Of a DNA stretch of 64,000 bases, positions 20,614 through 53,057 are shown piece by piece. This DNA is from Cyanobacteria bacterium auto_48_18 (GTDB taxonomy: Bacteria; Cyanobacteriota; Vampirovibrionia; Obscuribacterales; Obscuribacteraceae): contig JAVHQC010000033.1 in the NCBI GenBank assembly GCA_036170915.1, forward strand, positions 160,001-224,000, given 5' to 3'. The first letter of the stretch is position 1, and each line of letters opens with the position of its first letter. Under the pieces are notes generated by a model that saw only the letters and a program-made list of their open reading frames with translations, was not told where the DNA came from and ran no database searches. A program made the translations under genes and the position numbers.

Positions 20614-20645
20614 TTCGAGACAGTTCGCTCATCGAAAATAAGTTT

Positions 20646-29295: not shown

Positions 29296-29331
29296 CCGTT
29301 TAAAAGCCAAGTTTTTAAGTAGAATGAAATT

Positions 29332-29670: not shown

Positions 29671-29688
29671 AGGAGTTCTGCTTACTTA

Positions 29689-32514: not shown

Positions 32515-32515
32515 T

Positions 32516-33157: not shown

Positions 33158-33325
33158 TCGAGGCCACGAGAAAACATCAGTTGTGGCATGATAATAGAAA
33201 GGCTTGGTAGAAATACGAAACTTTTGGTAGATAATCGCTTCTCTTTTCGTATTCACCGCAGAACTGGTGCGGGTTTTGTTGTGCAACTACTTGTATAAAA
33301 GGTATAAGTAAGTAACGATCAATTT

Positions 33326-36388: not shown

Positions 36389-36474
36389 TTTGATCACTTA
36401 AGTGTGCATATATTCCGCCCAGCGGGTAAATCACCTTAGGGACACCACTTTAGGAACCACGTCACCTTTTGGTT

Positions 36475-37614
36475 ATGCAGCAGACTTTACTTCCCAGCGA
36501 CAAAGACTATTGGAAGCACATCGTTGCTTCGAACAATCAGTTTGGTATAGACGTCCTTAAAACTCTCGCCATGGCCAGACCGACATCAAATGTAGTGTTG
36601 TCGCCCACCAGTATTTTTCTTACCGCTTGCATGCTCTATAACGGGGCAGGTGGAAACACCTATTCGCAAATGGCCGCTGCCCTCAATTTACCGAAGCCCA
36701 ATGAAATCAATCCATGGAACAGGCAACTTTTAAATTACCTGGTGATGGATAAACCGGACCACGAAGTCTCAATTGCCTCAGCTCTCTGGTTTGGTAAAGG
36801 GGTGCGCTGCCACGAAGGCTTTGTCAATAACGCCGTAGAAGCCTATTCAGCCTCTTTATATGGAGTAGATTTTGGCTCCCCTGAGGCGATTGAGCAAATC
36901 AACTATTGGGCAGAGAATGCCACCAAGGGTAGAATCACTCATATTCTGGATGAAAATAGTTGCAACGAAGCTACCCTTCTGGTCATCAGCAACGCAATTT
37001 ATTTCTTTGCTAAATGGGAACAGAAATTTGATGCTGAGAAGACCATAGACAGCCCTTTTTATATGGTTGGTGGCGGTGCAAAATCTGTAAAAATGATGTC
37101 TAAAGTAGATAGTTTGGCTTATCGGGAAGATGAAAATGCCCAGATAGTAAAGCTGCCTTACAAACAATCACCATACTTTATGCAATTGGTATTGCCCAAG
37201 CCTGGTCGCAGTTTTGGCCACTGCATCGAATATATCAAAAATCCAAACATGGTTATGAATGCTGTTCCGAAAACTTCGGTGGCTTTGCGAATGCCCCGGA
37301 TGGAAATTGAATTTAGTGACAATCTCAATCAAGCAATGTCGCAGCTTGGTATGAGTGAACTTTTCGCTAATAACTGCGATTTGTCTTTGATCACTCCAGG
37401 TGTAAAAGTTAGCTTCATTAATCATGCAGCAAAATTAACTGTGGACGAAAGCGGTACTGAAGCCGCCGCGGTAACGGCGGTCGGGGTAGGGTACGGTTTG
37501 GCACCGAGCGTCGAGAAACCTGTCTCAATGACTCTGGACAGACCATTTTTGATGGCCATCGCTGATAGTGGCACAGGGCAAGTGCTCTTTTCTGGTGCCA
37601 TACTTTCGCCGTGA
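36475..37614 (+). CDS. Serpin (serine protease inhibitor family)
   Basis: NVVLSPTSI, NAIYFFAKW, VDESGTEAAAVT hinge, DRPFL. Confidence 0.93.
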   Translation: MQQTLLPSDKDYWKHIVASNNQFGIDVLKTLAMARPTSNVVLSPTSIFLTACMLYNGAGGNTYSQMAAALNLPKPNEINPWNRQLLNYLVMDKPDHEVSIASALWFGKGVRCHEGFVNNAVEAYSASLYGVDFGSPEAIEQINYWAENATKGRITHILDENSCNEATLLVISNAIYFFAKWEQKFDAEKTIDSPFYMVGGGAKSVKMMSKVDSLAYREDENAQIVKLPYKQSPYFMQLVLPKPGRSFGHCIEYIKNPNMVMNAVPKTSVALRMPRMEIEFSDNLNQAMSQLGMSELFANNCDLSLITPGVKVSFINHAAKLTVDESGTEAAAVTAVGVGYGLAPSVEKPVSMTLDRPFLMAIADSGTGQVLFSGAILSP

Positions 37615-37659
37615 GCGTCGGGCTTTGGTCGGCTGGTTACTAAAAGAGCTTACGAAAAC

Positions 37660-37688
37660 GCAGAGAAATTTTGCGCAAATTTCTCTGC
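37660..37688. repeat. 29-bp palindrome, copy 4
   Basis: GCAGAGAAATTTTGCGCAAATTTCTCTGC between convergent genes. Confidence 0.85.
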
Positions 37689-37743
37689 AATCTGGCACAA
37701 CCTATTAATGACCCCGACAACAAGAGCCGAAAAGCAGCGAAAA

Positions 37744-38469
37744 TCAGGGTTTTTGCGCCGTAAAATTGATCTGTGTCGAGCACCAGTGCACCGAGCGACC
37801 TTCTTTTTCTAAAGTCTCTTCGTAAGGGTCGATAGTTTTAGCAATCACATTCCAGCCGGCAAAAGCAAGCGCCAGCATTTCTTCTACTTCTTCGCGCAGC
37901 AGCGGAGTTTCTACAAAAGTAGCAATGGCCTCGCCTGAAACAACATCAACAACGTTGCGATTGGTAGTCATTTCAATGCGCACAAAGCCACCGCTTTTGC
38001 AGCCTGCTGCTATTTCGCGCATTAGAGTGAGCACGCGGTCTTTGCCCTGGCAATGCTCCAGGGTCGAGATTGCGGCAATCAAATCGTAATGCGATTTAGC
38101 CATAGCGAAATCATCATTGTCGGCGAGTACTGGCTCAATAATATCTTGAACTTTATAAGTGACAGCATACTCACTCAACAGATCTATTGATTCTGCTAAA
38201 ACATCTACGCAAGTGATTGTGGCTTCTTTATTTTGTTTCTGCAAAGCTTGTGCCATAGGAATGGCATTGCGACCTACTCCGCAGCCCAAATCAAGAATTT
38301 TGATATTGCCTTCTAAATAGTTGAGCAGCTGCATCAAAGGTTCGTCAGGATGCGCTAACCAGGAGCCGTCTTCGAATAGTTTGAAACGACTATAGTAGGC
38401 TTTATGGTATTTGAGTGTTTCTTCTCGTGCGCGTTCAAAGTCAACAGATTCCACTGATTCAATAGACAT
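37744..38469 (-). CDS. Class I SAM-dependent methyltransferase (TehB-like)
   Basis: ILDLGCGVGRNA, YDLIAAISTLEH. Confidence 0.85.
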   Translation of the reverse strand: MSIESVESVDFERAREETLKYHKAYYSRFKLFEDGSWLAHPDEPLMQLLNYLEGNIKILDLGCGVGRNAIPMAQALQKQNKEATITCVDVLAESIDLLSEYAVTYKVQDIIEPVLADNDDFAMAKSHYDLIAAISTLEHCQGKDRVLTLMREIAAGCKSGGFVRIEMTTNRNVVDVVSGEAIATFVETPLLREEVEEMLALAFAGWNVIAKTIDPYEETLEKEGRSVHWCSTQINFTAQKP

Positions 38470-38473
38470 GCAA

Positions 38474-39262
38474 TCAGCTCCCAGCAGATTTATTATTGAC
38501 TGCGCTGTAAAGCGCACCGCGAGTGCGTAGCTGAATGTTATTGCCTTTGCGGAAATGTTGAATTACGTGGCGCAGACGAGCCCTATCTTTTTCATTCAGT
38601 TCCGTCTCGTACCAGTTGCTGAATGCAAAAGTGAATGCTTCAGCGGTGACGGCGCAGTCAGGAAAAATAAAGGAGTAATCACTTTCTTCGTATGGAATTT
38701 CTTCTTTCAAATATTGTTCGAATACACGTTCAAGTGGTGCTTCGTAAATTTCGGCAGCATCGAGATCGCGTTCGCGTGAAGGCACAAAGCGCCTTGCGAT
38801 ACGGTCATAATCACAATCTCCGTAGAGGCCAAAAATAAACAGATGACCATCAGCTTTGAGTACACGCTTCACTTCGGCCAGCGCCTGGTCGCGTTCTTTA
38901 ACCAGATGGAACATCCACGGCATGATCACAACGTCGAAGCAATCGTCATCAAAAGCTAATTGCTCAGCTCCCATTTCTAAGAAGGTGAGGTTCGAGATGG
39001 TATTGCGCGCTGCGTAGTCGGCTGCAAACTGCACCAGGCGACCGTCAGGGTCAACGCCTGTGACTCGTTTGGCTAGTGGTGCCAGTTGATAACAAAGCCT
39101 GCCGTTACCACAACCAAGTTCAAGTACATTCTTTCCAGCAATGCTTGCTTGCCGCTCCATTGCCGCAATTTCTGCGCCGGAAATTGCAAAGAAATTGCTC
39201 CACAATCTCATCGATTGCAGATAATCCGAGCTTTTCCGGCGCGAAATAGAGGGTGACGTCAT
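38474..39262 (-). CDS. Class I SAM-dependent methyltransferase
   Basis: VLELGCGNG, FDDDCFDVV, EVKRVLKADG. Confidence 0.88.
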   Translation of the reverse strand: MTSPSISRRKSSDYLQSMRLWSNFFAISGAEIAAMERQASIAGKNVLELGCGNGRLCYQLAPLAKRVTGVDPDGRLVQFAADYAARNTISNLTFLEMGAEQLAFDDDCFDVVIMPWMFHLVKERDQALAEVKRVLKADGHLFIFGLYGDCDYDRIARRFVPSRERDLDAAEIYEAPLERVFEQYLKEEIPYEESDYSFIFPDCAVTAEAFTFAFSNWYETELNEKDRARLRHVIQHFRKGNNIQLRTRGALYSAVNNKSAGS

Positions 39263-39271
39263 CAGTTTGAC

Positions 39272-40285
39272 CTAGACCAGTGCAGGGCTTTTAGTTGCTT
39301 GTTCTTTATTGCTGAGTCCTTTTTCGCTAAGACCTTTTTCTTTGAGCGCTTTTTCATAAGTAAAAGTCTCGTCCATGTCTTTGACCAGGTCGGTTTTATA
39401 GTAGTCGTTGTACCAGCGCTCACAGTCCCAGGCAAAGGCTTTTCTTAGACGCTCGAGATAAGTAGTCCAGTCACGTTCGTTGGCTTTGGTTGTCCAGGTG
39501 GCAAGAATGTTGTCGAAAGTAGCTTCTTGTTCTTTTTGGAAATCAAGAATAGCATCGTCTTCACCTTGTTCAAAGCGCTTGAGATTGCGTGAGAACGGTA
39601 TCGAACCGAGATACTTGTCGGCTCCAACTCTTTCTTTGATGTAATTGGCGTCTTCTTCACCATCTACTTTGTTGCCGACCACAAATGTACGGCTGGCAAA
39701 TTGAGGAGCAATTTCTTCAAAATCAAGAAATACCTGAGTAGATTTTTCGGTGGGCTCAAGCACAAAGACATTGATGTCGTAGGCGAAAGAAAGTGATGTA
39801 GCGACATTATCTGTACCAGCAGTGGTGTCGGCCACGACCATGTCTTCACTGGTGTCGAGCATGTGGTGGAAAATACCGGCTAAGCTTTTCAGCTTCTCGT
39901 GATAGCAAGAGCCGCCCACATCTTCTTGTTGATAGGTGCCTACAGTGAGCAAAGCAATGTTGCCTTCTTTTAAAGCGTATTTTTCAATGAAGGCGTCGTT
40001 CGCTTTAGCCGTGATGAAATTGGAACCGACAGCTGGAGGGGTGGTGCCAATCATCGGTCTTGTGCCGATGTCTTTTCTCTCGCCCTGCAAATATTCAGTC
40101 ACTTCGTCGAAATGAAGACCTAGTTGTTTTGTCTCGCCTTTGAGATTCAACGCACTTTTTAAGTGAGCATTAAGATCTGCGTCTACGGCCACAACAAAGG
40201 GAAAGCGCTTGGCTAAATATTGTATGAAACCGGATGACGTTGTTGTTTTACCGGCTCCGCCTTTTCCAAGAAATGCAATCCTCAT
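39272..40285 (-). CDS. CooC/AcsF-like (MinD superfamily) ATPase
   Basis: MRIAFLGKGGAGKTT, VDADLN, GGSCYH, DTTAG, VLEPT, GNKV. Confidence 0.85.
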   Translation of the reverse strand: MRIAFLGKGGAGKTTTSSGFIQYLAKRFPFVVAVDADLNAHLKSALNLKGETKQLGLHFDEVTEYLQGERKDIGTRPMIGTTPPAVGSNFITAKANDAFIEKYALKEGNIALLTVGTYQQEDVGGSCYHEKLKSLAGIFHHMLDTSEDMVVADTTAGTDNVATSLSFAYDINVFVLEPTEKSTQVFLDFEEIAPQFASRTFVVGNKVDGEEDANYIKERVGADKYLGSIPFSRNLKRFEQGEDDAILDFQKEQEATFDNILATWTTKANERDWTTYLERLRKAFAWDCERWYNDYYKTDLVKDMDETFTYEKALKEKGLSEKGLSNKEQATKSPALV

Positions 40286-40785
40286 TTTAATTCTCCTTTT
40301 CTCTCAAGTTTTATAGTTTTGGTTGGTGCTGTATCTCTACTTGCAACAACAGTGCTGGCAGCAACAGTGCATAACCGGCAAGTGCCGAATAATTCGAGCA
40401 AGTGTTCAGATACCGAAAATCCGTGTTCACGTAAAATGATTTCTTCGATGCTTGAAAGCAAGCAGTCTTTCATCTTGATATTGCTGTGGCAAACTTTGCA
40501 AATCAGGTGGTGGCTGTGCTCACCTGCTTCAATAGCTTCATAGCGTTTTTCGGCGTCGCCCACGCTGACTGCTTGAACCAGACCAAGCCTGGTTAAAAGT
40601 TCAAGTGAGCGGTAGACCGTGGTCAAGCCTGGTGCCGCAGTTTCGCTGGCCAACTTAGTTAGTTTCATGCGGAAGCAAAGATCGCGAGCGCTGAGCATCT
40701 CGGGTGCTTGTTTGAGAGCAGACAGCACTGCTTTTGCTCCTTTTGGGAGATTCTTGCGTGTGCCCACTAGTTTACTTTCCAGCAT
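40282..40785 (-). CDS. Fur family metal-responsive regulator
   Basis: GLTTVYRSL, HSHHLICKVC, FGTCRLC. Confidence 0.9.
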   Translation of the reverse strand: MLESKLVGTRKNLPKGAKAVLSALKQAPEMLSARDLCFRMKLTKLASETAAPGLTTVYRSLELLTRLGLVQAVSVGDAEKRYEAIEAGEHSHHLICKVCHSNIKMKDCLLSSIEEIILREHGFSVSEHLLELFGTCRLCTVAASTVVASRDTAPTKTIKLERKGELK

Positions 40786-42127
40786 GGTTTTGCTCCTTGC
40801 TGCACTCGGAGCTGCGTAATTCGGCGCTGCGCAAATCAGCGTTACGTAATTCGGTTGCGATTAATTTCACTAGCGGGCCGGAAAGATTTTCAGGATAGCC
40901 ATGCAGTTTAATTACGCTATCTGTAGCACCAGGAAGTGCGTTCGTCGCCACTATCTGTGGTGCTACCCACTGCAGGGTAACAACATCATAAAACTGATGT
41001 ACTCCATCTCTTTCTCTGTAGCCATAAAGAGGTAGGTAACTGTGGAAAACAAAACCAGAGGCACGCAGGTGATCTATTACTTCCAGCGCTTGTGGTTCAT
41101 TGGCCGGTACACGCACCAAGATGTAGCGTTTATCTTTTTCTTTGACACTCTTGACGGCTTCACTGAGAGCTGCGGCGTCAAATTTGAAATCAGGTTGGTA
41201 GACAATATAACTATGGCCGAAACCATCTTTATAGTCGATGGTTAAGTGAGCTGATGCGGCGTCAGCGTTCTGCTCTGCTTGATTTTCTTCATTATCAACC
41301 CGCTGGAAAAATTTGCTCTTGACGCTTCTATCGAGCAAATCTTCGAATTGAAATAAAATTGATTGCACTATGGGCGCATAGTCATGAGGTACATAGGCTG
41401 TGCGATGCTGCAGAACTTCCGCCACTAATTGCAAATGCTCTTCGCTCAAGCGTCCGTCTGCAAGTTTAATTGAGCCCTGTGCTTGAGCTGTTAGCACTGC
41501 CTGCACCACATCACTGGTGGTGTTGCCTAACTTACGGCCCAGAGTGCTGCGAATTTGCTTAATGGCACTGACTAGTTTGCCTTGAAAACGTGTCACCCAC
41601 AAAACTGACTCAGGGTGATTGACAAAAAATACTGAAGGATAGTGGCAGAAAGCAAAACCGACGATATTGCGAAAACCTGCCTGGAAATGGGCAGCCTGGC
41701 TGGCAAGGCTGTGGGTCACCAGTTCGGTGCTGTTGATGGTGAGCGCCGTGGCTTCGGTAATATCTCTCAGGCCGTCTACCAGCGCAGAACCTATGCGCAT
41801 ACCGCGACAATCACGCCGCACTGCCATGCTGTTGTGCTCGATGTGGAACGGGCTCAGCCGGTCGGCCACCATAGCACCAACAATGCGGTCATTGTGTTTG
41901 GCTACGGCAATCATGCGCTCTTCCGCCAGAAGTGTGGCTTTTACACCAGCCTCAGAAAAAAGGTCGCTGTCAGGATAAGCTTCTGCTCCGGGTTGGCCTA
42001 CGCCACCAACACCAAGAGCGGCTTCGTACATTGTGGCAATATCTTGACTGAGGGTATCAGCATGGTCGCGAGTGGCGGCAAAGACCTGCACTTTTTCTTC
42101 TGGTTTGCTTTCCACATATTCTGGCAT
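40772..42127 (-). CDS. GNAT-fold protein
   Basis: MAVRRDCRGMRIGSAL, ELVTHSLASQ; ATG 42127 overlaps the upstream TGA. Confidence 0.7.
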   Translation of the reverse strand: MPEYVESKPEEKVQVFAATRDHADTLSQDIATMYEAALGVGGVGQPGAEAYPDSDLFSEAGVKATLLAEERMIAVAKHNDRIVGAMVADRLSPFHIEHNSMAVRRDCRGMRIGSALVDGLRDITEATALTINSTELVTHSLASQAAHFQAGFRNIVGFAFCHYPSVFFVNHPESVLWVTRFQGKLVSAIKQIRSTLGRKLGNTTSDVVQAVLTAQAQGSIKLADGRLSEEHLQLVAEVLQHRTAYVPHDYAPIVQSILFQFEDLLDRSVKSKFFQRVDNEENQAEQNADAASAHLTIDYKDGFGHSYIVYQPDFKFDAAALSEAVKSVKEKDKRYILVRVPANEPQALEVIDHLRASGFVFHSYLPLYGYRERDGVHQFYDVVTLQWVAPQIVATNALPGATDSVIKLHGYPENLSGPLVKLIATELRNADLRSAELRSSECSKEQNHAGK

Positions 42128-43734
42128 CAAGCTTGGAGCTGGCATTGCACCTCCGGGCTGCGGGCCTGCGAAGCGCTGTTTAGGGCCAATATATGTTTGG
42201 CCACATTGTGACCATTGGCGGCAGTGACATTGCCACCAGGGTAGGTGCCTGCACCGCAAAGATATAAATTATCAAAAGGAGTTTCATAGGGTGCGCAATC
42301 AGGCAAACTGCGTTTCTCAAACAAATATTGAGGAGTCATCGGCATGTGCCAACACGACAGAGAGGCCAGATTAAAGGCTTCCGCCAGTACCCTTGGTGAT
42401 ACCACATAACTTTGCTCTATCAATTGACGAATTTCAGGACATTGCCCTTCAATGGCAGCAATGGTCAATTCAAGCAGTTGTTCATCGTCGGCCTGGCTCC
42501 AGGCCTTGCCATCTATTTGGGCGGGCACATAATGTACGTCCACAGTCAGCACATGTTTGCCGCTGTGCTCAGCCCGATTATCAGCCATAGAAGGGTCTTC
42601 GAGCGTGGGAAATGCCATGGTCAGCATTAAGCGCTCTGGCATATTGCCGCCGGGCACGGTATGAGAAGCTTGCTTAACAGCACTCAGGGGTGGAGCAACT
42701 ACAATCACGCCTTTGTGATTATGGTCAATTTGTTTCAGTGTTGTAAAAGTCGGCAATGCTTTCAAAAGGAAATGCAATTTGGCGGCTGAGACCTTGGGGC
42801 GGTTTTCGCTCAAATAATGGCGAATGGCTTCAGTGGCGGGTTGCTTGTCTAGCAATTTCTCAAAGAGTATGTAGCTATCGCAATTGGCAATGACAATGTC
42901 AAAACTTTTCTTTTCGCCGTTTTCAAATTCAACAGCGGCAATGCGGCCGGCTTCAACCACCAGACGACTGACACCATGGCTGGTGTGCAGCGTGGCACCA
43001 TGAGCTTGCGCAACTTTTGCCAGAGCTTGAGTTATTTCACCCATGCCCCCATAAACCTGCCCCCAGGCGCCAAATTCGCCTTTGGTTTCGGCGGTGCCGT
43101 GGTGAATGCAGCCAAAAACCGAGCCCACTACATTAACAAAGCCTGGTGTGCAAGTGGCTGCCACAGCCATTAAGTCTTCACTCTGAATATAATGTTTGAG
43201 CAGGTCAAGTAGACTGCCTTCGAAAATGTGGGCAGCAATTTTATCTAGTTTTGCTTCAAGCAAAAGTGACACCACTTGCTTTTGCGTCAGATCGCTTTTG
43301 AGATAACGCGGATAGATAAGTGCAGCGGCTTTCTGCATGTCGCCCCAGAAGCGCTGCCAGCCTTCTTTATCTGCACCTGTGAGCGAGGCAATTTCCGCTC
43401 TGGCTTCCCCACCATCTCGAGGGGTGAAAGAAAATTGTCCACCGTCGAGCAAAACAATTTCAATTGGGTCGGTTAAGTATGGCTTGAGACCATGCTCTTC
43501 TAAACTAAGCTCTTGCACAATTTCTTTGCGCACCATACCGAAATATGATGCCACTGTTGAAACTTTGATTTCGCTGCCGAATGCGGCAAATGGCTTTTCG
43601 GTGACACAGAGACCACCCAGGCTATTGCGTTTTTCAAAAACATCAACTTTATAGCCGGCTTGGGCCAGATATGCAGCAGCGGTCAGACCATTGTGGCCTG
43701 CTCCGACAATCGCGATTGTTTTTGCTGCGGTCAT
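42127..43734 (-). CDS. FAD-dependent oxidoreductase, phytoene dehydrogenase-like
   Basis: GAGHNGLTAAAYLA, GGMGEIT, LYLCGAGTYPGGNVTAANGHN. Confidence 0.88.
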   Translation of the reverse strand: MTAAKTIAIVGAGHNGLTAAAYLAQAGYKVDVFEKRNSLGGLCVTEKPFAAFGSEIKVSTVASYFGMVRKEIVQELSLEEHGLKPYLTDPIEIVLLDGGQFSFTPRDGGEARAEIASLTGADKEGWQRFWGDMQKAAALIYPRYLKSDLTQKQVVSLLLEAKLDKIAAHIFEGSLLDLLKHYIQSEDLMAVAATCTPGFVNVVGSVFGCIHHGTAETKGEFGAWGQVYGGMGEITQALAKVAQAHGATLHTSHGVSRLVVEAGRIAAVEFENGEKKSFDIVIANCDSYILFEKLLDKQPATEAIRHYLSENRPKVSAAKLHFLLKALPTFTTLKQIDHNHKGVIVVAPPLSAVKQASHTVPGGNMPERLMLTMAFPTLEDPSMADNRAEHSGKHVLTVDVHYVPAQIDGKAWSQADDEQLLELTIAAIEGQCPEIRQLIEQSYVVSPRVLAEAFNLASLSCWHMPMTPQYLFEKRSLPDCAPYETPFDNLYLCGAGTYPGGNVTAANGHNVAKHILALNSASQARSPEVQCQLQA

Positions 43735-43743
43735 TTTAATTCT

Positions 43744-45015
43744 CTAGTTCGTGGCTGCTTGTAATACTTCCACCAGCTGATCGATTTCAGCTTTGGTGTT
43801 ATAAGCGTGCATGCTCACTCGCAAATAATCCTCTTCGCCTTCGCCTTTTTTCTCAGTGCAGTGATCACCCGCTCTGACGAAGATTTTTTCGGCGTCCAGT
43901 AAGAAAGTAAGGTCAAGGGCGGCCACTTGCTCAAAGCGGAATGAAATAATGCCGAAGCCTGAGTCACATCCGCAAATGCCGATGCCCGGCGCGAATGCCA
44001 GACCAGGCAAGTCCATAAGTTTCTGCCAGAGATATACAGTAAGTTCGCTCAATTGTTTTTCAATGGCTTCAATACCAATTGATTGAATGAAGTCCACGGC
44101 TTTGCCCAGCGACAAAATGGCAGGAATATTGAGAGTGCCGCACTCAATTAATTGATGCATCGACTTAGCCGAATACTCCAGACCGTTTTCGGTGATCGAA
44201 ACTGGGCTCTGGCCACCAAGGCGAACTGGCTTGATTTTAGCGGCGATGCGAGGGGAGATATAAAGCCCACCTACACCAGGGGCTGCGAACATTTTGTGTC
44301 CTGAAAACGAAATCATGTCGACAGGCAGTGTCTGGGCGTCTACTTTTGTATGACCCACGCTCTGGCTGGCATCAAGCGAAATCACCACATCATCGCCAAC
44401 AATTTCGCGAATTTTTGCAACTTCCATGTCTAGGCCGAATACGTGGTGCACGTGAGCCATAGCCAGCACTTTAGTGCGAGGAGAGATTTGAGCCTTGATG
44501 CTCTTTAAGTCATAGTCGCCCACTTCGTGAATGGTGAAGTGTTTGATGTGAATGTTTTTGCCTTGAGCCTGCAGCATCTCTTGCACGTTGTACCAGGGCA
44601 AGACTGCTGATTTATGATCTTGCTGGCAAAGCATGACTTCATCGCCGTCTTCCAGATTGTTGAGGCCATAGCTAAGTGCCGCCATATTGAGGCTGTCTGT
44701 GGCACCACCTGTGAAGACCAGGTTTTGCACTTCGCAATTAAGAAATTGCGCCACTTTGTTTCTTGTCTCTTCAATATCGCGAGTCAGTTGTGTTGACCAC
44801 GAGTATGAGGCGCGACCGGCATTAGCGCAGCGATTGGTGTAATAGTCGAGCAGTTCGTCTACAACTATTTGCGGCTTTTGCGTTGTGCTGGCGCTGTCAA
44901 AATAAATTAGATCAGGATGGTTAGCAAAAATAGGGAAGTGTTTTCTGAAACTCTCCACGTCTAAAGTGTTTGCAGTATTGGTGGTATCTTGCTCTTGAAT
45001 TTGACAGCTGGTCAT
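43744..45015 (-). CDS. Class V PLP enzyme, SufS-like cysteine desulfurase
   Basis: YFDSASTTQKP, DASQSVGH, FSGHKMF, VRAGDHC (catalytic Cys position). Confidence 0.85.
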   Translation of the reverse strand: MTSCQIQEQDTTNTANTLDVESFRKHFPIFANHPDLIYFDSASTTQKPQIVVDELLDYYTNRCANAGRASYSWSTQLTRDIEETRNKVAQFLNCEVQNLVFTGGATDSLNMAALSYGLNNLEDGDEVMLCQQDHKSAVLPWYNVQEMLQAQGKNIHIKHFTIHEVGDYDLKSIKAQISPRTKVLAMAHVHHVFGLDMEVAKIREIVGDDVVISLDASQSVGHTKVDAQTLPVDMISFSGHKMFAAPGVGGLYISPRIAAKIKPVRLGGQSPVSITENGLEYSAKSMHQLIECGTLNIPAILSLGKAVDFIQSIGIEAIEKQLSELTVYLWQKLMDLPGLAFAPGIGICGCDSGFGIISFRFEQVAALDLTFLLDAEKIFVRAGDHCTEKKGEGEEDYLRVSMHAYNTKAEIDQLVEVLQAATN

Positions 45016-45065
45016 TCGTTTTTCCTGTGAACTGTGAACTATGTAAGTACTATTTTTTGTGATTG

Positions 45066-46445
45066 TTATTTTGAGCCTGAACCCATGCCTACCAAACTTT
45101 TTCTTACACCATCTTGCTTGGCCCGCTCTGTGGTCTTACCGGCGTCGCGCCAGCCCACAAAGCCACCTTCCAGGCTGCTCACATCCACACCCTTGGTTTT
45201 GAAGTAAGCGGCGAAGCGTTTCGATACTTCACCGGTGGGGCAAACCAGTACAACTTTCTGGTCGTTGGCAAATGGCACGCCCATATCAGCAATGTCTTCC
45301 AAACCGTCTGTAGGAATGTTTAGTGAGCCTGGTATGCGTGAAGCTTTAAAGGCAAGGCTGCCACGCATATCAACAATCAGTGGCTTGACGCTCTGAGCGA
45401 GCAGACTCTCTAATTTGTCGCAGTCGACTTCAGGAGCGTTGTCAGTTTGCTCTTTGGTGATCGCTTTGAGCGAATCTTTTTTCACTGCCAGACCAAATAA
45501 TTCTGGTCTGTATTTTTGCAGGTAAGAGAGATACCACTCAACGCGGTCACATGCGATGAAGACGGCGTTGTGTTTGCGTGTCAACGTACCGTCAATATCT
45601 TTGAAATATTTGAGAGCGGCGGCGAGGCTGCCACCACCAGTAGGCCCGGCTAAAATGCCGCACTTGCGAATCAGATCGAGCATGGCATCAATTGATTCGT
45701 CCATTGAGACTTCAATAATATCGTCGTAGAAGTCTTTTCTGAACAAGCCTACTTCGTACATTTCATCAACGTTTCTGATGCCCGGCAGCAGTTGACCTTT
45801 GCTGGCGATAACACCAACGTTTATCATTTTCTCATTCTTTTCTTTGAGAAAAGTGCCGGCACCACGGGTAGAGCCCGTTGTGCCCAGGCCACCGATGAAA
45901 TAGTCTACTTCGCCGGCATTTGCGGCCTGCAAATCTTCCCAGACTTCGCGCCCGGTAGAGTTGTAGTGAGCATGGATATTTTTTTCGTTGGTATATTGCG
46001 AGGTGTGGAAATATTTGCCGGGGCTGGCCGACATAATTTGCTCGATGAAAGTGATTGGATCGTTAGGGTCGGTAGGATCTGGACATTCGGACAAACCGGG
46101 CAATTCGTCAACGTCAGCGCCCAGCAGTTGCAAAATTTGTTTGACTTCGCGCACCTTGATGCGGTTTGTCACGATTTTGAAAGGCACACCATAAGCTGAA
46201 CAGACCAGTTGCATGGCTTTAGCCATGTTGCCGCTTGATGATTCAATGACGGTTTTGCCTTCTCTGGCGATTTGTTCAATATCGTCTTTGAGCACATTCC
46301 ATGCGCTCTTATCTTTAACCGAGCCAAAAGGATTCAACAACTCGAGCTTGGCGTAGAGATTGATATTTTTTAGACCATGCACTTGCGGCGGTATTTCGAA
46401 CAATGGTGTATTGCCGATTAGCTCACTGACATGTTTGACTAACAT
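45066..46445 (-). CDS. Cysteine synthase-family PLP enzyme fused to a rhodanese domain
   Basis: NPFGSVKD, ESSSGN, GLGTTGS; C-terminal IPGSLNIP..VCPTGEVS..LEGGFVGW. Confidence 0.88.
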   Translation of the reverse strand: MLVKHVSELIGNTPLFEIPPQVHGLKNINLYAKLELLNPFGSVKDKSAWNVLKDDIEQIAREGKTVIESSSGNMAKAMQLVCSAYGVPFKIVTNRIKVREVKQILQLLGADVDELPGLSECPDPTDPNDPITFIEQIMSASPGKYFHTSQYTNEKNIHAHYNSTGREVWEDLQAANAGEVDYFIGGLGTTGSTRGAGTFLKEKNEKMINVGVIASKGQLLPGIRNVDEMYEVGLFRKDFYDDIIEVSMDESIDAMLDLIRKCGILAGPTGGGSLAAALKYFKDIDGTLTRKHNAVFIACDRVEWYLSYLQKYRPELFGLAVKKDSLKAITKEQTDNAPEVDCDKLESLLAQSVKPLIVDMRGSLAFKASRIPGSLNIPTDGLEDIADMGVPFANDQKVVLVCPTGEVSKRFAAYFKTKGVDVSSLEGGFVGWRDAGKTTERAKQDGVRKSLVGMGSGSK

Positions 46446-46511
46446 TTTGAATTATCTCCGAGTGTTCTACAAAGGTTTGTGGTCTGAAACTATAGGAAAA
46501 CTATAAGTAGA

Positions 46512-48026
46512 TTAGGGCAACTCTTCCCAGTAAGGCACATACTCTGAATCGAGCATCCAGGTGAATTTACCCTGGCGCTCCATTACTGCTACTTTCTTAG
46601 CAATAGGATGCATGATTGAAGTAGAAGCCGAAAAGTCCATGAAATAACCGGCACTGTTGACGAATACGACTAAATCGCCTGGTTTGGGCAACTTTTTCAC
46701 ATAAGTCAAATGGCGGTAAATCAAGTCAGATTCCAGGCAGAGGTTACCGGCAAAATAAACACCGACTGGCTGAGCGTCTGATGATTCCGGTGTGGGATCT
46801 TTTTCGATTACTACCGGATCAACAAAGATTTCTTGATCAAGGAATGATATATCCTGGCGTTTCATATTCAGGCAAATGATTGGTTCATTGCGGCTTGACG
46901 TGCGGACCGAGTTAACCCGAGCGACAGTAATGCCTGTTTGTTCAACCAGTGAGCGGCCCGGTTCGATCCAGAGCTCAATCATATTGTCGCGAATGATACT
47001 GGCAGCAGTGGCGTCACCTAAATTGGCAAAGCGCTGGCTGAGCAATTCATCTAAGAAATCACCACCAGTCTCGGTATCAAAATAGCTGTAGCTATTGAAA
47101 TTGCCTTTCAACTTGCCCTTGTCTGACGACATGCCAAAGGCGTTGTTGTGCCAGGTCATGGTTGGTCTAGTGCCGAGCACTGACTCTTTCAGGGCGCTGA
47201 CATAAGCGTTCCATTCATCTTCGTTCTCTAAATAATTGACTTTGTAGCCACCGCCGATATTTAGTACGCGTGGTTCAAAGTCTCTGCTTAGCGCTTCTTC
47301 GAAAAGCTCAAGGCAATTTTCAATGGCAATGGCGCGCTCTAGAACACTGACTGTATCTAAGTGGAAGGAAAAACCGAGCAATTCCACTTCTTTGCGATTA
47401 GCTTCTAAAATATCAAAAGCAATGTTGGCTTCTTTTAGAGGCACACCAAAACGGCTGCCTTTATTGAGAAACTTACTGTGATTGGCTTCAAAACCAGAGA
47501 GGCGAAGGAGAATTTTGGTCGCCTTCTTCACTTTGAGCACTGCTCGCAGTGTCAAAATCATCTTTAGTTCAGAGATGCTGTCTACTGCAATGGTGATGCC
47601 CTGTTGAATGGCCAGACCAAGAAACTCTGCGTTTTTTGGCCCGGTGGCTTCGATGCGGCTAGCATCAAAGCCGCTACCCAGAGCGTGTCTTAATTCATTG
47701 ACTGAGCTGACATCGAGATTGGCGTTTTCAACCGCCAGGCGCCTTGTTAATGAATCAGATTGATTGCATTTGTGTGCGAAGAATATTTTGCCGATTACAT
47801 TGAGGTCGCGGAATGTTTTTTGAAAACCTTCCACATTCTCGCCAATCAGTTCAGGGAACAGCACATTCAGTGGGCTCCCGAGAGCGCGGGTGAGCTCAAG
47901 CAATGTCTCTCTTTCCGCCAGAAATTTCTTTATCAGCGGGTGGATTTTTGGCGTCAGAACAAGATTTTCTGGCGCTCTTTCTGCTTTTATCTGTTCTAAA
48001 TTAGATACTGGAGTTGTAATTGACAT
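46512..48026 (-). CDS. Fold-type III PLP decarboxylase (LysA/SbnH/Y4yA-like)
   Basis: FAHKCN, DVSSVNEL, TGPKN, SRFG, LNIGGG, IEPGRSL, GNLCLESD, NSAGY. Confidence 0.87.
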   Translation of the reverse strand: MSITTPVSNLEQIKAERAPENLVLTPKIHPLIKKFLAERETLLELTRALGSPLNVLFPELIGENVEGFQKTFRDLNVIGKIFFAHKCNQSDSLTRRLAVENANLDVSSVNELRHALGSGFDASRIEATGPKNAEFLGLAIQQGITIAVDSISELKMILTLRAVLKVKKATKILLRLSGFEANHSKFLNKGSRFGVPLKEANIAFDILEANRKEVELLGFSFHLDTVSVLERAIAIENCLELFEEALSRDFEPRVLNIGGGYKVNYLENEDEWNAYVSALKESVLGTRPTMTWHNNAFGMSSDKGKLKGNFNSYSYFDTETGGDFLDELLSQRFANLGDATAASIIRDNMIELWIEPGRSLVEQTGITVARVNSVRTSSRNEPIICLNMKRQDISFLDQEIFVDPVVIEKDPTPESSDAQPVGVYFAGNLCLESDLIYRHLTYVKKLPKPGDLVVFVNSAGYFMDFSASTSIMHPIAKKVAVMERQGKFTWMLDSEYVPYWEELP

Positions 48027-48044
48027 TTTATTCTCGTTTAACAC

Positions 48045-49019
48045 TTAAACCGTAGTTAGACTTTTTACTCGGTCTAAGACTTTCTCGTAAGTGAAGTCCT
48101 GGTCGAGGCCGCTGTCTAATTTTTGATCAAAATAATCATCTAACCAGTCGCGGCAAACTTTAGTGTGAGTAGCTCTCAAGCGCGTCAGGTAGTCAGTCCA
48201 GTTGCGCTTTTTGCTTTCTAGAGTATTGAGAACTTTTTCGAAGACCAATTCTTGTTCTTTCATGAAATCATCAAGTGCTTCACGTTTGCCCTGTTCAAAG
48301 CGCTTCAGATGGCGTGATTGTGGCACTGCACCAAGCAATTTTTCTTGGCCTACATGTTTGATGATGAATAGTTCGTCTTCAGGGGTATCGACTTTGTTGG
48401 CAATTACATAAGTGCGCTCTGCCAGGTGCGGAGCTACTTGCAGATAATCAAGATAGACTTGAACAGATTTTTTGGTTGGCTCAACCACAAAGACGTTCAT
48501 GTCATAAGCGAACGAAAGTGAAGTGGCCACATTGTCGGTACCGGCAGTAGTGTCAGCTACGACAACATCGCTATCACCATCAAGCAAATGATGGAAGAAA
48601 GACTGCAAACCGGTGAGCTTAACGTGATAGCAAGCCCCACCCACATCACTTTCTTTGTAAGTACCCACTGTTAAAAGTGCTATATTACCGCTGGTTTGCG
48701 CATATTTTTTGATTAGCGGATCGCTCGCGCTGACAGCGATGAAATTTGATTTCAGCGAAGGTGGAGTGGTACCAACCATGGTAAGTTCGCCCAGGTCTGT
48801 TCTTTCACCTTTCAAGTAGGTGATGATTTCTTCTTTTACTTCGCCTAATTCGTGTGCTTCGCCTTGCAAATTCTCAAGGTGCAGTGCTCCACGCAGGTGG
48901 GCGTTAACATCGGCATCAATAGCCAGTACATATGGTTTTTTCTTGGCCAGATAGCGAATAAAACCAGCTGCTGTAGTGGTTTTACCGGCGCCGCCTTTTC
49001 CTAGAAATGCAATTCTCAT
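48045..49019 (-). CDS. CooC/AcsF-like ATPase, second paralog
   Basis: MRIAFLGKGGAGKTT, GGACYH, DTTAGTDNVATSL. Confidence 0.85.
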   Translation of the reverse strand: MRIAFLGKGGAGKTTTAAGFIRYLAKKKPYVLAIDADVNAHLRGALHLENLQGEAHELGEVKEEIITYLKGERTDLGELTMVGTTPPSLKSNFIAVSASDPLIKKYAQTSGNIALLTVGTYKESDVGGACYHVKLTGLQSFFHHLLDGDSDVVVADTTAGTDNVATSLSFAYDMNVFVVEPTKKSVQVYLDYLQVAPHLAERTYVIANKVDTPEDELFIIKHVGQEKLLGAVPQSRHLKRFEQGKREALDDFMKEQELVFEKVLNTLESKKRNWTDYLTRLRATHTKVCRDWLDDYFDQKLDSGLDQDFTYEKVLDRVKSLTTV

Positions 49020-49039
49020 GGTCTTTTCTCCTGCCCTTT

Positions 49040-50683
49040 TTAGAGCGGTTTTACTGCTCTTTTTACGATTTTTTTGTTTTGATTGCGCACACCAGTCGGA
49101 ATTTTTCTGGCGGACAATCTATTTTTATGTGTGTTGCCGAAACGCGCATCACTTGCATGATTTGAATTTTGGCTTTGTAGACTTGTGTTCTTAAGGTCAC
49201 GGCCCAGCACCGTAAACCACGGCAATAGTGCCGAATCCGTAAAGTGATAAGAGGCTCTTGGTGGCAATACCAGTTTGTCGTTTTTTGCCAGAGTCTCGTA
49301 GACTGAAGGGCAAGCTCTCTCAACTTTGGTGCCTTCGTCATAGTGTGTTTTGACTACAGCCTGTGATAAATATTCAGGTAAGAACACCACAGGTAGTTCT
49401 TTGATGTAATCGTATTCGGCCAGTAGTGGGCGAATATATGTATTGAGTTTTGAGCGATATTCAGGCCGTGAAAGGAAATAAGCCAGATGACTGAGTGCCT
49501 CATGGCGCGATACGGCACTTTCTTTTGATTGTTCAAAATATTCAGCAGTGGCTTTTTGAAACTCTGGGCAATCCATTGACCAGTCCAGATTTTTGTCTGC
49601 TGTGTGTTTGAGAATATTCCAAATATAAGAAGCGGTGACGCGGTGATTGCCATCGGCCACCAGACCCATTTCGTTAATTACAACTGGTGCAAAGCCACGG
49701 CCCACGAGGTTAATCACTTCATCAAACAAACGCTCGCGCACACAAAACTCTGTTGCTCCCAATCTCGCTAATGGATAGAGCGCCACTTCTACGAAGTTAC
49801 CGGCGAATACTCCAGCAGCAAAAGTTTGCAAACCAGCACTCATAGTTTTGTAGCTAATCAGTGCTTCCAATTCAAAAAGCACATATAAGAGATTGTTGTC
49901 AGTGATGCGATTTTGATTTTCTTGCAAAAATGCTAGTGCCTGTGCCAGCGGCTCGGCGTCTTGCCGGGCGTCAAAAATAATTGAATGGTGCCAGGCTGTA
50001 CTTATGGTAAGCAGCATTGCTACAGAATCTGCCTGGGCAAAATTGTTGTGCTGCGCTGTTTGATAAAGTCCTTGCACATGCTTTTTGAAAGCTGATAGCG
50101 CTCCTACCGCTCTATCGGCGTCGAGTTTAGCTTCTTCACCAACACCTGTGACCACTGTCTGATGCAAGAATGAAAGTGACGGAGCGCTAATGCCTGTCCA
50201 GGCCCAAGGTTCTTTCACTTCGGCAGGGCTGGTGAAAAGATCGGTGTCAACTGTTTGCGCAATGGCGTTGCCGATTCTTTCTAACCGAGCAATAGTTTTG
50301 CTGTCGAAAGAAACTAAATTTTGGAATTGGTCAAACAATAAATTACCGCGATTAACTTCGTGGCAGTGTGGTCCACCAGGACCCGGAATGATGGGGCCAG
50401 GAAAATAACTGGGCACATTCTGGCTGCTCACGTCGCTGGTACCGGCTGCCAGTGCGGCCTCCAGGCGTAATTGATAAAACAGTGCTGAAGCTTGAGTTTC
50501 GCCACCAAGATTTTCTTTTTCGGCGTGACTGATTTCATTGCCGAAATTGAGCTGGCTGGTGGAGACAACTTGAATTTTCTTTTGCGCTTGATAGGCAGTG
50601 AGCGATGGCATCGAACAGGCAGGCGCAAATTTAGATACGCCCTGGTTCTGACCGGCAAAAATTGAAAATGTCAGAGCTTCCAC
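49040..50683 (-). CDS. Hypothetical protein with a ParB/Srx-like motif
   Basis: PVVINEMGLVADGNHRV; GTG start overlaps the upstream TAG. Confidence 0.6.
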   Translation of the reverse strand: MEALTFSIFAGQNQGVSKFAPACSMPSLTAYQAQKKIQVVSTSQLNFGNEISHAEKENLGGETQASALFYQLRLEAALAAGTSDVSSQNVPSYFPGPIIPGPGGPHCHEVNRGNLLFDQFQNLVSFDSKTIARLERIGNAIAQTVDTDLFTSPAEVKEPWAWTGISAPSLSFLHQTVVTGVGEEAKLDADRAVGALSAFKKHVQGLYQTAQHNNFAQADSVAMLLTISTAWHHSIIFDARQDAEPLAQALAFLQENQNRITDNNLLYVLFELEALISYKTMSAGLQTFAAGVFAGNFVEVALYPLARLGATEFCVRERLFDEVINLVGRGFAPVVINEMGLVADGNHRVTASYIWNILKHTADKNLDWSMDCPEFQKATAEYFEQSKESAVSRHEALSHLAYFLSRPEYRSKLNTYIRPLLAEYDYIKELPVVFLPEYLSQAVVKTHYDEGTKVERACPSVYETLAKNDKLVLPPRASYHFTDSALLPWFTVLGRDLKNTSLQSQNSNHASDARFGNTHKNRLSARKIPTGVRNQNKKIVKRAVKPL

Positions 50684-51567
50684 TATTTTGCTCCTGCGGC
50701 AGTGAGTTGCTGAGCTTTGCGCTCCGGATAGACTTCCACCAGACGCTCTTGCCAGTAAGCCTGGCGCTCAATCAGTGCTTGGGTTGGTTTTTGTTGATTG
50801 AAGAATTGAGTCAGCAAATCGTATGTGGTTAAACCTGGCTCAAGAGCAAAGAGATCGTATTTGCAGAAGCTCGCCAAAAGAATTTCTTCTGCTGCTTTTA
50901 AGTTGCCGGTTTGCATAGTTGCGTTTGCTTCTTGCAATAAACTCTGGCGCAGGCTTTCGGTCAGGTCAGGTAGTTTGTGCAGCGCATCTTGATCAAGAAA
51001 TTGATTGTCTAAAAGACTCTGCAATTTTTCTTCTACATAGCAGTCGAGCATTAAATGAATGCGCGGTGCAGGGCCAAAATTGCAAGCACTGTGAATTGTC
51101 GATTTGGGATCAAGTTTCCACAAATAACCTTTTTTGAAATGCACATTCAAACCAGGGCTGGTGATGAACGCTTGGTCATTGGTTATGAGCGGCATGTGCA
51201 GGCGATAACGTGGCACGTCTTCGAGATAAACAAAGTCACGATGCTCATGCAAAAATGTGCCCGGGTCTAAGCGCAAAAGCCTTGAGCCCATGATCTTAAA
51301 GCCGCTGTCTTGCAAGAATTTTTGCAATGACGGTAGCTGCTGTAGAAGCGGAGTGGCAGCAGGGCTTGGACAATCGTGATAATCAAAATTGGTCTGTTCG
51401 CCGGTGTGATTCAAAAGTGTGGCGATTTTCAAACCGTCAGATCCATATTCCGGATAAGGCTCTTGCCAGATTGACTCCAACTGCAGAGCCGGAGCCATAA
51501 GCTCGGCGACAATGGCATCGAGTATGGCGGCAGGAATTTCTTTTAGTTGAGCGATGTAGGAAAGAAT
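50683..51567 (-). CDS. Aspartyl/asparaginyl beta-hydroxylase-like Fe(II)/2OG enzyme; probable ATT start
   Basis: RLLRLDPG..LHEHRD, RLHMPLITN, HSACNFG..RIHLMLD; first ATG is at 51498. Confidence 0.8.
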   Translation of the reverse strand: MLSYIAQLKEIPAAILDAIVAELMAPALQLESIWQEPYPEYGSDGLKIATLLNHTGEQTNFDYHDCPSPAATPLLQQLPSLQKFLQDSGFKIMGSRLLRLDPGTFLHEHRDFVYLEDVPRYRLHMPLITNDQAFITSPGLNVHFKKGYLWKLDPKSTIHSACNFGPAPRIHLMLDCYVEEKLQSLLDNQFLDQDALHKLPDLTESLRQSLLQEANATMQTGNLKAAEEILLASFCKYDLFALEPGLTTYDLLTQFFNQQKPTQALIERQAYWQERLVEVYPERKAQQLTAAGAK

Positions 51568-51609
51568 GGTTCTGCTCCTGGCTTGTATATACGGATGGCA
51601 ATCATATCT

Positions 51610-51628
51610 GAAAATGGTTTCCGTTTTC
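51610..51628. promoter_or_regulatory. Putative Fur/Zur-type operator
   Basis: 9-1-9 imperfect inverted repeat GAAAATGGT-T-TCCGTTTTC beside a minus-strand TATGAT (51606-51601). Confidence 0.5.
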
Positions 51629-52166
51629 CGATTATGAGAGCGGTTACATGCGAATCATTGCGTTAGCGTTTCATATCTTTACTTCTGCATTGCCACACTG
51701 GGTGGGGCAATTACTTCAGCACGGCTCTGTCACTGGCATCAGGCTTATTGAGAACGAGTTGCAACCGACCTGAGGTCAGTTTAGTGCCAAAGCTCACAAT
51801 CAGCATCTGTTTTTCGAATTATGTAACGAGCATGAGCGGCCTCTCATAGAGCATCACCAGTGGTGCTAAATTAAAACCTGTGGTGCTTTTGCTCACTTTG
51901 CATTTTCGCAAGCCCCGCTGATTAGCGCGATATAAGCTGAGCGTCGCGATTTTCAGATGATATCTATTTCAGCAGAATCGCAAACCACCGTTGGCTTTTC
52001 CGCTCTATTTCGGCAGAGGCTCTTGCCACTGGCTATGGTGTCGGATGACAATAGCGCTCTTGCATAACCTTTACAGCCGGGCATTCGCAATCTTTCAGAT
52101 TTTAAGCTGACGAACTTGTAAGAGTGATCTAGAATCTATTTAAGGGGTACTAAAAAGGAAGTTGTC

Positions 52167-53057
52167 GTGGACAGCGGTCAGTCTCGTGCATATTTTGAAA
52201 ATAAGACGGAAAACAGTCGCCTCGAAAGTGGCGTCTCAGACAAAGGCGATAAGAATCTAAAAAGCAAAGTGAAAAAGAAGAGTGTGGTCTTAATGGATCG
52301 CGACATCAACTCTCTTCTTGAGCTTTATTTGCACCGCACGATCTCTTCCAGTCAGCTGGCCCGGCTGTGTTTTCCAGACATCAGCTATGAGACTGCCCGC
52401 AAACGTTTGCGCCGCCTGCAGCAAGCTGGCTTTACTGGTGCCTCATCGTCAGGCCGCATGGAAGGGCGTGGACGGCCTGAGTTGATTTATTTTCTCACCG
52501 CTTCCGGTGCCAGAGCCCTCGAGCAGAGCCGGGGTATTTCCTGGGAAACTATTCCCACCGGCCCACCTCACACTTATCACAAAGAACACTTTTTGCGTCT
52601 TGTGGACGTACGATTGGCCATGGAAGACGCTGAGTTAGCCGGTCTTATTACTGGTCTTGAATTTACTACCGGCCGCGAATTCTGGAAAGAGTTGGCTTCT
52701 GATCTTACTGAAGCGGAAGAGCAGGCCGACGCCACTATCTCTTTCAGTTATCCTGGTTTGGAGCCAGTGCGTGTTTTGTTAGAAATCGACACTGGCAATT
52801 TCCGTCAGACACGGCACTGGGAGCCAAAAATCAAAGCCTTTCTCAAAACCGGTTATCCGATTTGGGTGGTTACCGGCAGCGCGCCGCGCATTTTTACTTT
52901 GCGCAAATGGACTCAACCATTGCTTGAAGAAGCTCGTGTAGGACCAGGCAAATGCGTTTTTGCTGTCTACACCGAAATTGTAGAAAAAGGAATTTTCAAC
53001 GCCCAGTGGCAGCGCACAGATGGCTCGTACACAGACTTACAGCCCAAGATGATCTAA
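52167..53057 (+). CDS. Replication-relaxation family (relaxase-like) protein
   Basis: wHTH (RD..LL..L..SSQLARL..ARKRLRRL, YFLTASG), H..RL, ADA, LEIDTG. Confidence 0.75.
   Translation: MDSGQSRAYFENKTENSRLESGVSDKGDKNLKSKVKKKSVVLMDRDINSLLELYLHRTISSSQLARLCFPDISYETARKRLRRLQQAGFTGASSSGRMEGRGRPELIYFLTASGARALEQSRGISWETIPTGPPHTYHKEHFLRLVDVRLAMEDAELAGLITGLEFTTGREFWKELASDLTEAEEQADATISFSYPGLEPVRVLLEIDTGNFRQTRHWEPKIKAFLKTGYPIWVVTGSAPRIFTLRKWTQPLLEEARVGPGKCVFAVYTEIVEKGIFNAQWQRTDGSYTDLQPKMI

Follow-up and report, generated by a model that had tools for sequence, protein, structure and literature searches.

A conserved twelve-gene operon of the Obscuribacteraceae and a proposed synthetase-free route to a metal ligand

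The Obscuribacteraceae are non-photosynthetic kin of the cyanobacteria. From one member of the family, Cyanobacteria bacterium auto_48_18 (assembly GCA_036170915.1, contig JAVHQC010000033.1, positions 160,001 to 224,000), we analyzed a stretch of 64,000 nucleotides, here called the window, which holds a real, conserved and uncharacterized operon of twelve minus-strand genes running from position 51567 to 37744 (Table 1). With confidence that is about evenly balanced, we read it as a metal-starvation operon, answering to zinc first and with iron added, for a synthetase-free pathway to a small metal ligand containing sulfur and nitrogen.

All twelve open reading frames (ORFs) are intact, are separated by gaps of -44 to +66 nt, and are under purifying selection (dN/dS of 0.015-0.12 for every gene, in comparison with the relatives L016 and L076). 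A preliminary description, made from the sequence alone, had listed twelve packed minus-strand genes and their families, and this is borne out by the ORFs, Pfam and NCBIfam matches, dN/dS and conserved gene order. It had also proposed that the operon lacks the genes of nonribosomal peptide synthetases (NRPS), of NRPS-independent siderophore (NIS) synthetases and of ATP-grasp enzymes. Neither an NRPS condensation domain nor an IucA/IucC domain was found in the genome, which is 86% complete (positive controls for the latter were detected); the twelve genes themselves hold no IucA/IucC domain and, in a check confined to them, no ATP-grasp domain.

Core enzymes and distribution of the gene set

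At the center of the operon stand a pyridoxal 5'-phosphate (PLP) enzyme of the cysteine-synthase fold that is fused to a rhodanese domain (hereafter the PLP-rhodanese) and a cysteine desulfurase. The PLP-rhodanese, modeled at full length with a pLDDT of 90.6, keeps K44, C121, C299 and C402 in 78 of 78 loci, and the desulfurase keeps its PLP lysine (K241, 74 of 74 aligned sequences) and catalytic cysteine (C386, 73 of 73). The desulfurase is of the SufS type here and of the IscS type in L053 (356 bits for IscS vs 142 bits for SufS), and it is therefore the function, and not the orthologue, that is conserved. Because the two types replace each other and the cysteine of the rhodanese never varies, incorporation of sulfur into the product is probable; the swap and the invariant cysteines of both enzymes support the use of sulfur that had been claimed for this operon.

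The PLP-rhodanese invites comparison with fungal fusions of the same kind, which make the metal chelator aspergillomarasmine A by beta-replacement on O-phosphoserine, with no synthetase, and with a Fusarium PLP-rhodanese enzyme that joins O-phosphoserine and alanine, after which an FAD enzyme frees 2,3-diaminopropionate (Dap), a GNAT gene being adjacent (PMC12751119, excerpt). A nitrogen-only route in the style of aspergillomarasmine A, Fda4/Fda3 or ethylenediaminedisuccinate (EDDS) would accordingly turn phosphoserine and an amino acid into an aminopolycarboxylate; the flavoprotein may free Dap, a decarboxylase would yield a diamine chelator, and sulfur would merely activate or repair the enzyme. 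We consider this route unlikely, although several observations favor it. Aspergillomarasmine A synthetase (8h4h/8h4q) is the best Foldseek match of the full-length model (E 1e-27, 23% identity), is likewise ranked first by the full-length profile, and combines the cysteine-synthase fold with a C-terminal rhodanese that also retains its cysteine. The classes of Fusarium poae Fda4, Fda3 and Fda5 (PLP-rhodanese, FAD oxidoreductase and GNAT) occur together here too, and a putative serine kinase is linked. The PLP domain by itself, however, does not favor the fungal enzyme: with a profile of this domain only, aspergillomarasmine synthase is not among the best 60 of 90 PDB matches, which are CysK/CysM-like, and in structural comparison it is tied with ordinary cysteine synthases (Z 35.5 vs 36.8). 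The architecture is therefore shared, and orthology is not established. Furthermore, an intact desulfurase of two different types accompanies the core, and the loop residue Cys121, invariant here, is missing from the aligned loop of the fungal enzyme. The operon also differs from the fungal systems in its linked desulfurase, fold-III enzyme and CooC-like ATPases, and the fda cluster has an NRPS whereas the operon has none.

The other PLP enzyme of the core belongs to an Atlas cluster named Y4yA family (score 0.96), and its PLP-binding Lys92 and its Cys436 are invariant across 70 loci; its alignment with a fold-III enzyme of an sbn cluster covers the barrel only (28% identity over 214 columns). 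Papers that name Y4yA reportedly deal with rhizobial secretion.

The preliminary description had made its proposal hang on the gene set being kept together elsewhere. Among 33 informative genome loci retrieved with the PLP-rhodanese protein, all twelve genes occur in identical order in 15, and the block of Y4yA, PLP-rhodanese, SufS, flavoprotein and GNAT genes is intact in all 33; these loci were picked for their closeness to the query and are mutually kin, and are therefore not independent. The PLP-rhodanese gene is present in 71 of 104 Obscuribacteraceae genomes and the ParB/Srx gene in 48 of them. The Y4yA gene occurs in 30 of 36 genomes of the family, vs none of 24 genomes from other families of the class. 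In 24 metagenome loci below 56% identity, Y4yA was found in 21, a desulfurase in 14 and a CooC-like gene in 11, some of the misses being due to short contigs and ORF calling. PLP-rhodanese and SufS genes also lie on two Streptomyces replicons, with the Y4yA gene called upstream in one (L050) and missed by ORF calling in the other (L051), and the Atlas clusters of both core enzymes are most frequent in Actinomycetota. The ParB/Srx protein belongs to a small family, with 101 representatives at E≤0.001 among 1.84 billion. A single-protein search of 300 other Cyanobacteriota genomes, a sample rich in small gut-type genomes, gave no match at E≤1e-70.

The widespread core is made up of the Y4yA-type fold-III PLP enzyme, the cysteine-synthase/rhodanese fusion, the cysteine desulfurase and the CooC-like ATPase. 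The Obscuribacteraceae expansion, which is new, comprises the ParB/Srx putative kinase, an Fe(II)/2-oxoglutarate hydroxylase, the flavoprotein, the GNAT protein, a Zur-like regulator and two methyltransferases. The twelve genes are thus a widespread core of three to four genes plus a family-specific expansion, and not one indivisible unit. At the other extreme, they could be separately acting metal-starvation genes with no single pathway; other genera have a rearranged gene order and lack some members, and in L036, L043 and L046 the hydroxylase gene is paired with that of a Fur-type regulator downstream of iron boxes. Despite this rearrangement, however, 41 of the 48 carriers of the putative kinase gene have it no more than 8 kb from the gene for the PLP-rhodanese (in several of the other seven, the two lie on separate contigs or on short ones), and the five-gene block is never broken among the 33 loci, so we regard such an aggregate as very improbable, although the methyltransferases may in part fit it.

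Two further cluster forms were observed. A compact form in L053-L057 (e.g., L053:5924-14894) consists of IscS, CooC-like, Y4yA and PLP-rhodanese genes, and in L053 it adjoins Fur-family genes, two COG0523 genes, a BT1 gene and MerC-like genes. A second, more distant cluster type is found in the same family (L059:3744-11864; also L060, L061, L062, L064, L066 and L067) and encodes a 900-aa cystathionine-gamma-synthase-like/cysteine-synthase fusion, a Y4yA-like enzyme, a short-chain dehydrogenase/reductase, a methionine-gamma-lyase-like enzyme and a DAO-type flavoprotein, C-S lyase-type enzymes in this paralogous cluster taking the desulfurase role, which is in line with the use of sulfur by the core. 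Several copies lie downstream of iron-Fur-type boxes, in L060 with a divergent flavodoxin gene, and this type is a candidate iron-regulated sister pathway.

Table 1. Features of the operon and its flanks, in window coordinates.
Feature	Position	Strand	Evidence
Terminator-like hairpin ending the operon	37659..37689	-	13-pair stem and T-run
Class I S-adenosylmethionine (SAM) methyltransferase 2	37744..38517	-	PF13649, E 9e-12; in 25/33 loci
Class I SAM methyltransferase 1	38474..39262	-	PF08241, E 4e-23; in 21/33 loci
CooC-like ATPase 2	39272..40285	-	58% identity to ATPase 1
Fur-family regulator, Zur-like paralogue	40282..40785	-	Best PDB match 3mwm, E 3e-18, vs 1e-16 for a Fur
GNAT-domain protein with unnamed C-terminal part; ATG at 42127	40772..42127	-	PF00583/PF13508, E about 2e-6
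FAD oxidoreductase, phytoene-desaturase/amine-oxidase superfamily	42127..43734	-	PF01593; best PDB match 4dgk, E 7e-11
Cysteine desulfurase of the core, SufS-type here and IscS-type in some other loci	43744..45015	-	TIGR01979, 318 bits (below its cut-off)
Cysteine-synthase-fold PLP enzyme fused to rhodanese (core)	45066..46445	-	PF00291 and PF00581
Y4yA-type fold-III PLP enzyme, probable decarboxylase (core)	46512..48044	-	PF02784
CooC-like ATPase 1, Cys-x-His site	48045..49019	-	Sole PDB match CooC 3kje, E 1.5e-16
Unnamed ParB/Srx-fold protein, putative small-molecule (serine-type) kinase	49040..50683	-	Structure model and motif
Fe(II)/2-oxoglutarate hydroxylase of the Asp/Asn beta-hydroxylase family; ATT start probable	50683..51567	-	PF05118, E 1e-12
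Box 3, Zur-type palindrome, consensus TGnAAAnnnTTTnCA	51607..51625	.	In 21/29 upstream regions examined
Box 2, weaker second box-1-type site	51646..51664	.	Right half kept in relatives; weak
Box 1, iron-Fur-type palindrome, consensus ATTGAGAAnnnTTCTCAAT	51747..51765	.	Kept upstream in relatives

Promoter motifs and metal regulation

The promoter carries two separable motifs, a new arrangement in which one motif is common to zinc-regulon genes and the other to flavodoxin and fur. Flavodoxin is a marker of iron starvation. The box 1 motif occurs upstream of the flavodoxin gene of this genome (three sites) and of its Fur-type paralogue (one site), although simple pattern matches to it are no more frequent in the window than chance would give. 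Box 3 abuts, by eye, a -10-like TATGAT at 51601-51606. Matrices derived from the relatives separate the two operator types; the two motifs are akin, and certain sites are scored by both matrices. The box 3 motif is also found ahead of a gene for a His-rich 114-aa protein in this genome and, in other loci, ahead of the core (L054, L056, L057, L058, L068, L075, L079 and L094). Of 34 other loci, 14 have an upstream site at p≤0.05 when the matrix is trained solely on L016-L048.

Zur targets include ribosomal paralogues and COG0523 genes (PMC6103462, excerpt). In Streptomyces L050 the core trio follows the genes for S14, L28, L33, L31, a CobW_C protein and S18, and the box 3 motif lies between the L28 and L33 genes of this island of ribosomal paralogues, which runs into the trio and is read as a zinc-starvation island; with the box 3 matrix, the site preceding the L33/L31/COG0523 unit of L050 scores 20 bits, and a site is also found ahead of COG0523 in L035. 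On this comparison the box 3 operator appears to be common to known Zur targets. COG0523 genes were found in L035, L053 and L095, and ZIP transporter genes in L035 and L107.

The cluster regulator, for which the preliminary description had proposed Fur, does belong to the Fur family, but is refined here to Zur-like: it is nearest, by a small margin, to the structure 3mwm, which we take to be Streptomyces coelicolor Zur, and has 44% identity to the C30 paralogue of this genome and 36% to the Fur-type C27 paralogue. Taken with the putative operators, we read these features as zinc control to which iron control has been added in this lineage.

The His-rich protein (L052:14689-15033, in G000:C8) is encoded behind two Zur-type boxes and has no Pfam or NCBIfam match; its homologues share a locus with the core in seven cases, including Streptomyces.

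Zinc-free substitute enzymes are frequent in Zur regulons (PMC6103462, excerpt), and the core might accordingly be a zinc-sparing bypass that substitutes for a zinc-dependent step of primary metabolism, with products such as lanthionine- or thialysine-like substitutes, cysteine persulfide or a thio-cofactor. Dedicated uptake genes are not linked to the core, and the lanthionine-bound Fusobacterium enzyme 5xem is the second-best match of the PLP domain, both in keeping with such a role. We nevertheless judge it improbable, since no zinc-dependent step requiring such an enzyme set could be named, and the hydroxylase, GNAT protein and methyltransferases resemble tailoring enzymes of secondary metabolism; a check for DapL gave a best score of 170 bits against a cut-off of 365. 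A housekeeping role is unlikely, as CysE, SerC, two further genes of the cysteine-synthase family and a Suf operon are already present in the genome.

Accessory proteins, operon limits and surroundings

The CooC-like ATPases resemble CooC1 (3KJE) as deviant Walker A ATPases with an aligned metal-motif position, but carry Cys-x-His (C130 and H132, 77 of 77) where 3kje has CYC (Cys-x-Cys), and the operon has no CO dehydrogenase. CooC is a metal-insertion ATPase, and the desulfurase, rhodanese and CooC-like ATPases might together assemble a metal-sulfur cofactor or modify a protein, for example the His-rich mini-protein, with no free metabolite made. The presence of the His-rich gene in the locus of the core, protein hydroxylases within the hydroxylase family, and a third CooC-like paralogue that precedes a 2Fe-2S ferredoxin gene are consistent with this possibility. 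The two PLP amino-acid enzymes at the invariant center suit small-molecule chemistry better, however, and no client protein recurs from locus to locus, which leaves this explanation with a slim chance. The third paralogue (L154; G000:C5:1324-2805) is followed by the gene for that thioredoxin-like ferredoxin and has a Fur-type site upstream. The complex predicted for the PLP-rhodanese and CooC-like ATPase 1 scored 0.02 vs a mark of 0.32 and was not used as evidence.

The ParB/Srx-fold protein has no Pfam or NCBIfam match, and its DGNHR motif (36 of 36 aligned homologues) and a Glu are invariant. Its model (pLDDT 84.8) has SbnI (5ujd) and SerK (5x0b) as best structural matches, both at Z 6.1 (next best 4.3), a middling value below the tool's safe level, with root-mean-square deviations of 3.3 and 2.5 over 130 and 119 residues, respectively; the Glu aligns on SerK E30 only given an ungapped range offset. 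Foldseek with this model returned nothing at E≤0.001, the SerK entries standing at E 0.2-1.1, and in a PDB profile search just 7o0i matched, weakly and at the N-terminus (E 0.003). Alignment with hhalign to two ParB proteins of Bacillus sbn clusters was not significant (probability 0.4-3.5%), and one of 40 column shuffles equaled the score. The ParB/Srx fold may bind ATP, CTP or GTP, and is not necessarily that of a kinase (PMC12704722, excerpt). On the strength of the model, we treat the protein as a putative small-molecule (serine-type) kinase.

An analogy with staphyloferrin B (SbnA-I) had been drawn in the preliminary description, and it survives only in loose form. The two systems share a cysteine-synthase-like enzyme, a fold-III decarboxylase, a ParB-fold protein and, as predicted here, Fur control, but the operon has no NIS synthetases, no SbnB/cyclodeaminase among its twelve genes, a decarboxylase of the Y4yA and not the SbnH type, extra sulfur-transfer enzymes and a Zur-type box; the PLP-rhodanese scores 145 bits on the SbnA model TIGR03945 against a cut-off of 350, and the match to SbnI is without significant sequence support. 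With no IucA/IucC found in this 86%-complete genome and neither SbnA nor SbnB recognized among the twelve genes, the operon is not that of staphyloferrin B.

For the hydroxylase, the HxD...H triad and Arg (H86/D88/H136/R146) are invariant in 36 loci. Its start, as the preliminary description had implied, is most likely the non-canonical ATT at 51567, which is preceded by GGAG and near the equivalent of which L029, L031, L032 and L048 show ATG or GTG; this ATT start appears genus-wide, other genera having ATG or GTG there. The true start of methyltransferase 2 is probably a later ATG near 38466. At the other end, hairpin scans of the type that found the terminator also give chance matches, and a sigma-70 scan was uninformative (18 sites vs 16.7 expected).

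A bacterial serpin gene (window 36469-37614), syntenic within the genus, converges on the operon, and a type IV secretion-like set surrounds it (17868-36388 and 52167-53057). This set includes four near-identical tandem 142-aa ORFs and a 2063-aa low-complexity protein (no Pfam matches), then VirB4/TraG-like and VirD4-like ATPases, with a Replic_Relax gene on the far side of the operon; VirD4 and Relax genes border the operon in relatives also. Nine tRNA genes are arrayed at 4122-5603, and a RES-domain gene with an Xre/MbcA-like partner (9389-10638) is a probable toxin-antitoxin pair.

Proposed pathway and its significance

For the favored reading, a metal-starvation operon for a synthetase-free ligand pathway, the genes, residues, synteny and motifs were observed directly, and the reactions and product that we infer would run as follows. 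The desulfurase, by family chemistry and with the necessary residues present, would draw sulfur from cysteine as a persulfide, which may be handed to Cys402 of the rhodanese and possibly on to Cys121 of the active-site loop. The PLP domain, as is usual in its family, would eliminate phosphate or acetate from an O-activated serine, provided here by the putative ParB/Srx-fold kinase, to give an aminoacrylate, to which a sulfur and/or amine nucleophile would be added. The Y4yA enzyme may then decarboxylate the adduct to an aminothiol or thioether amine. In the Obscuribacteraceae, the hydroxylase, flavoprotein, GNAT protein and methyltransferases, as their linkage suggests, may tailor the product, and by analogy the CooC-like Cys-x-His ATPases may load or unload metal. 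Because the bonds would be formed by PLP beta-replacement, no NRPS or NIS synthetase would be necessary. More speculatively, and in our view possible but doubtful, this persulfide-fed PLP line (desulfurase to rhodanese to active-site Cys) would make a metallophore or intracellular zinc buffer of a new thiol/thioether-amine class, handled by the Cys-x-His ATPases and under joint zinc and iron control, to which the Obscuribacteraceae would add a new kinase family and four types of tailoring enzyme.

Several findings weigh against the favored reading, among them the middling fold match and non-significant alignment of the putative kinase and the CysK/CysM-like ranking of the PLP domain. The kinase, hydroxylase, GNAT and flavoprotein genes were found in none of the 24 distant metagenome loci, and accessory genes vary within the Obscuribacteraceae; some are therefore possibly co-regulated passengers. 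With the matrix from L016-L048, 20 of the 34 other loci have no significant box, and the only boxes detected upstream of the core in L036, L043 and L046 are of the iron type. The operon contains no uptake gene, which counts against a classical secreted chelator. In favor of transport, 15 of the 33 related loci have a BT1-family gene of the major facilitator superfamily (MFS) next to the cluster, but no MFS gene is linked in this genus, to which the absence of a transporter given in the preliminary description is thus restricted; in a BT1 tree, the grouping of this genome's two BT1 genes with those linked to the cluster is not firm. Of 60 Obscuribacteraceae genomes, 5 gave a ZnuA match, and a TonB receptor turned up in one of five carriers searched; both results weaken the case for a chelator that is secreted and reimported. 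With neither ZnuA nor a TonB receptor found in most of the genomes searched, the product is possibly intracellular, and the ligand may act in the cell or periplasm and not as a classical secreted siderophore. Also in favor of transport, periplasmic binding proteins were found in all five genomes searched, and ZIP genes in 45 of 60 family genomes, though not in this one; zinc uptake in the Obscuribacteraceae may rest on ZIP proteins or on unrecognized routes.

Synthetase-free chelators under comparable control are known. Staphylopine (cnt) is made by a synthetase-free metallophore operon under both Fur and Zur (PMC9598555, excerpt), but the twelve genes here include no nicotianamine-synthase-like enzyme, racemase, opine dehydrogenase or linked ABC importer. 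[S,S]-EDDS (aes, Amycolatopsis japonicum) is a small Zur-repressed chelator with an aspartate precursor, and was found via its Zur box (PMC9252823, PMC13379591, PMC7586795, excerpts). In difference from EDDS, no C-N lyase is encoded among the twelve genes. The Aes enzymes include cysteine-synthase-like and decarboxylase-like enzymes. By analogy, the operon would work most like the synthetase-free aspergillomarasmine, Dap and EDDS pathways and be regulated like staphylopine, its membership in any of them not being established. A literature search at the level of titles and the starts of abstracts, with subscription papers and supplements outside it, found no description of the gene set. Of the undescribed, metal-regulated sulfur/amine pathway first proposed for this locus, the conserved gene set, the link to metal starvation and, as far as could be found, the absence of a characterized match stand, while the notion of one indivisible unit does not.

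If the favored reading is true, a widespread and unstudied zinc-starvation module makes a metal ligand that genome mining based on NRPS and NIS genes would miss. The Obscuribacteraceae locus adds to this module a candidate enzyme of precursor supply together with tailoring enzymes, and so leaves fewer substrates to consider, and the three-gene form in culturable Streptomyces makes the question directly testable. The locus also provides a first working split between Zur-type and Fur-type operators in the Obscuribacteraceae, a family mostly without detectable ZnuA.

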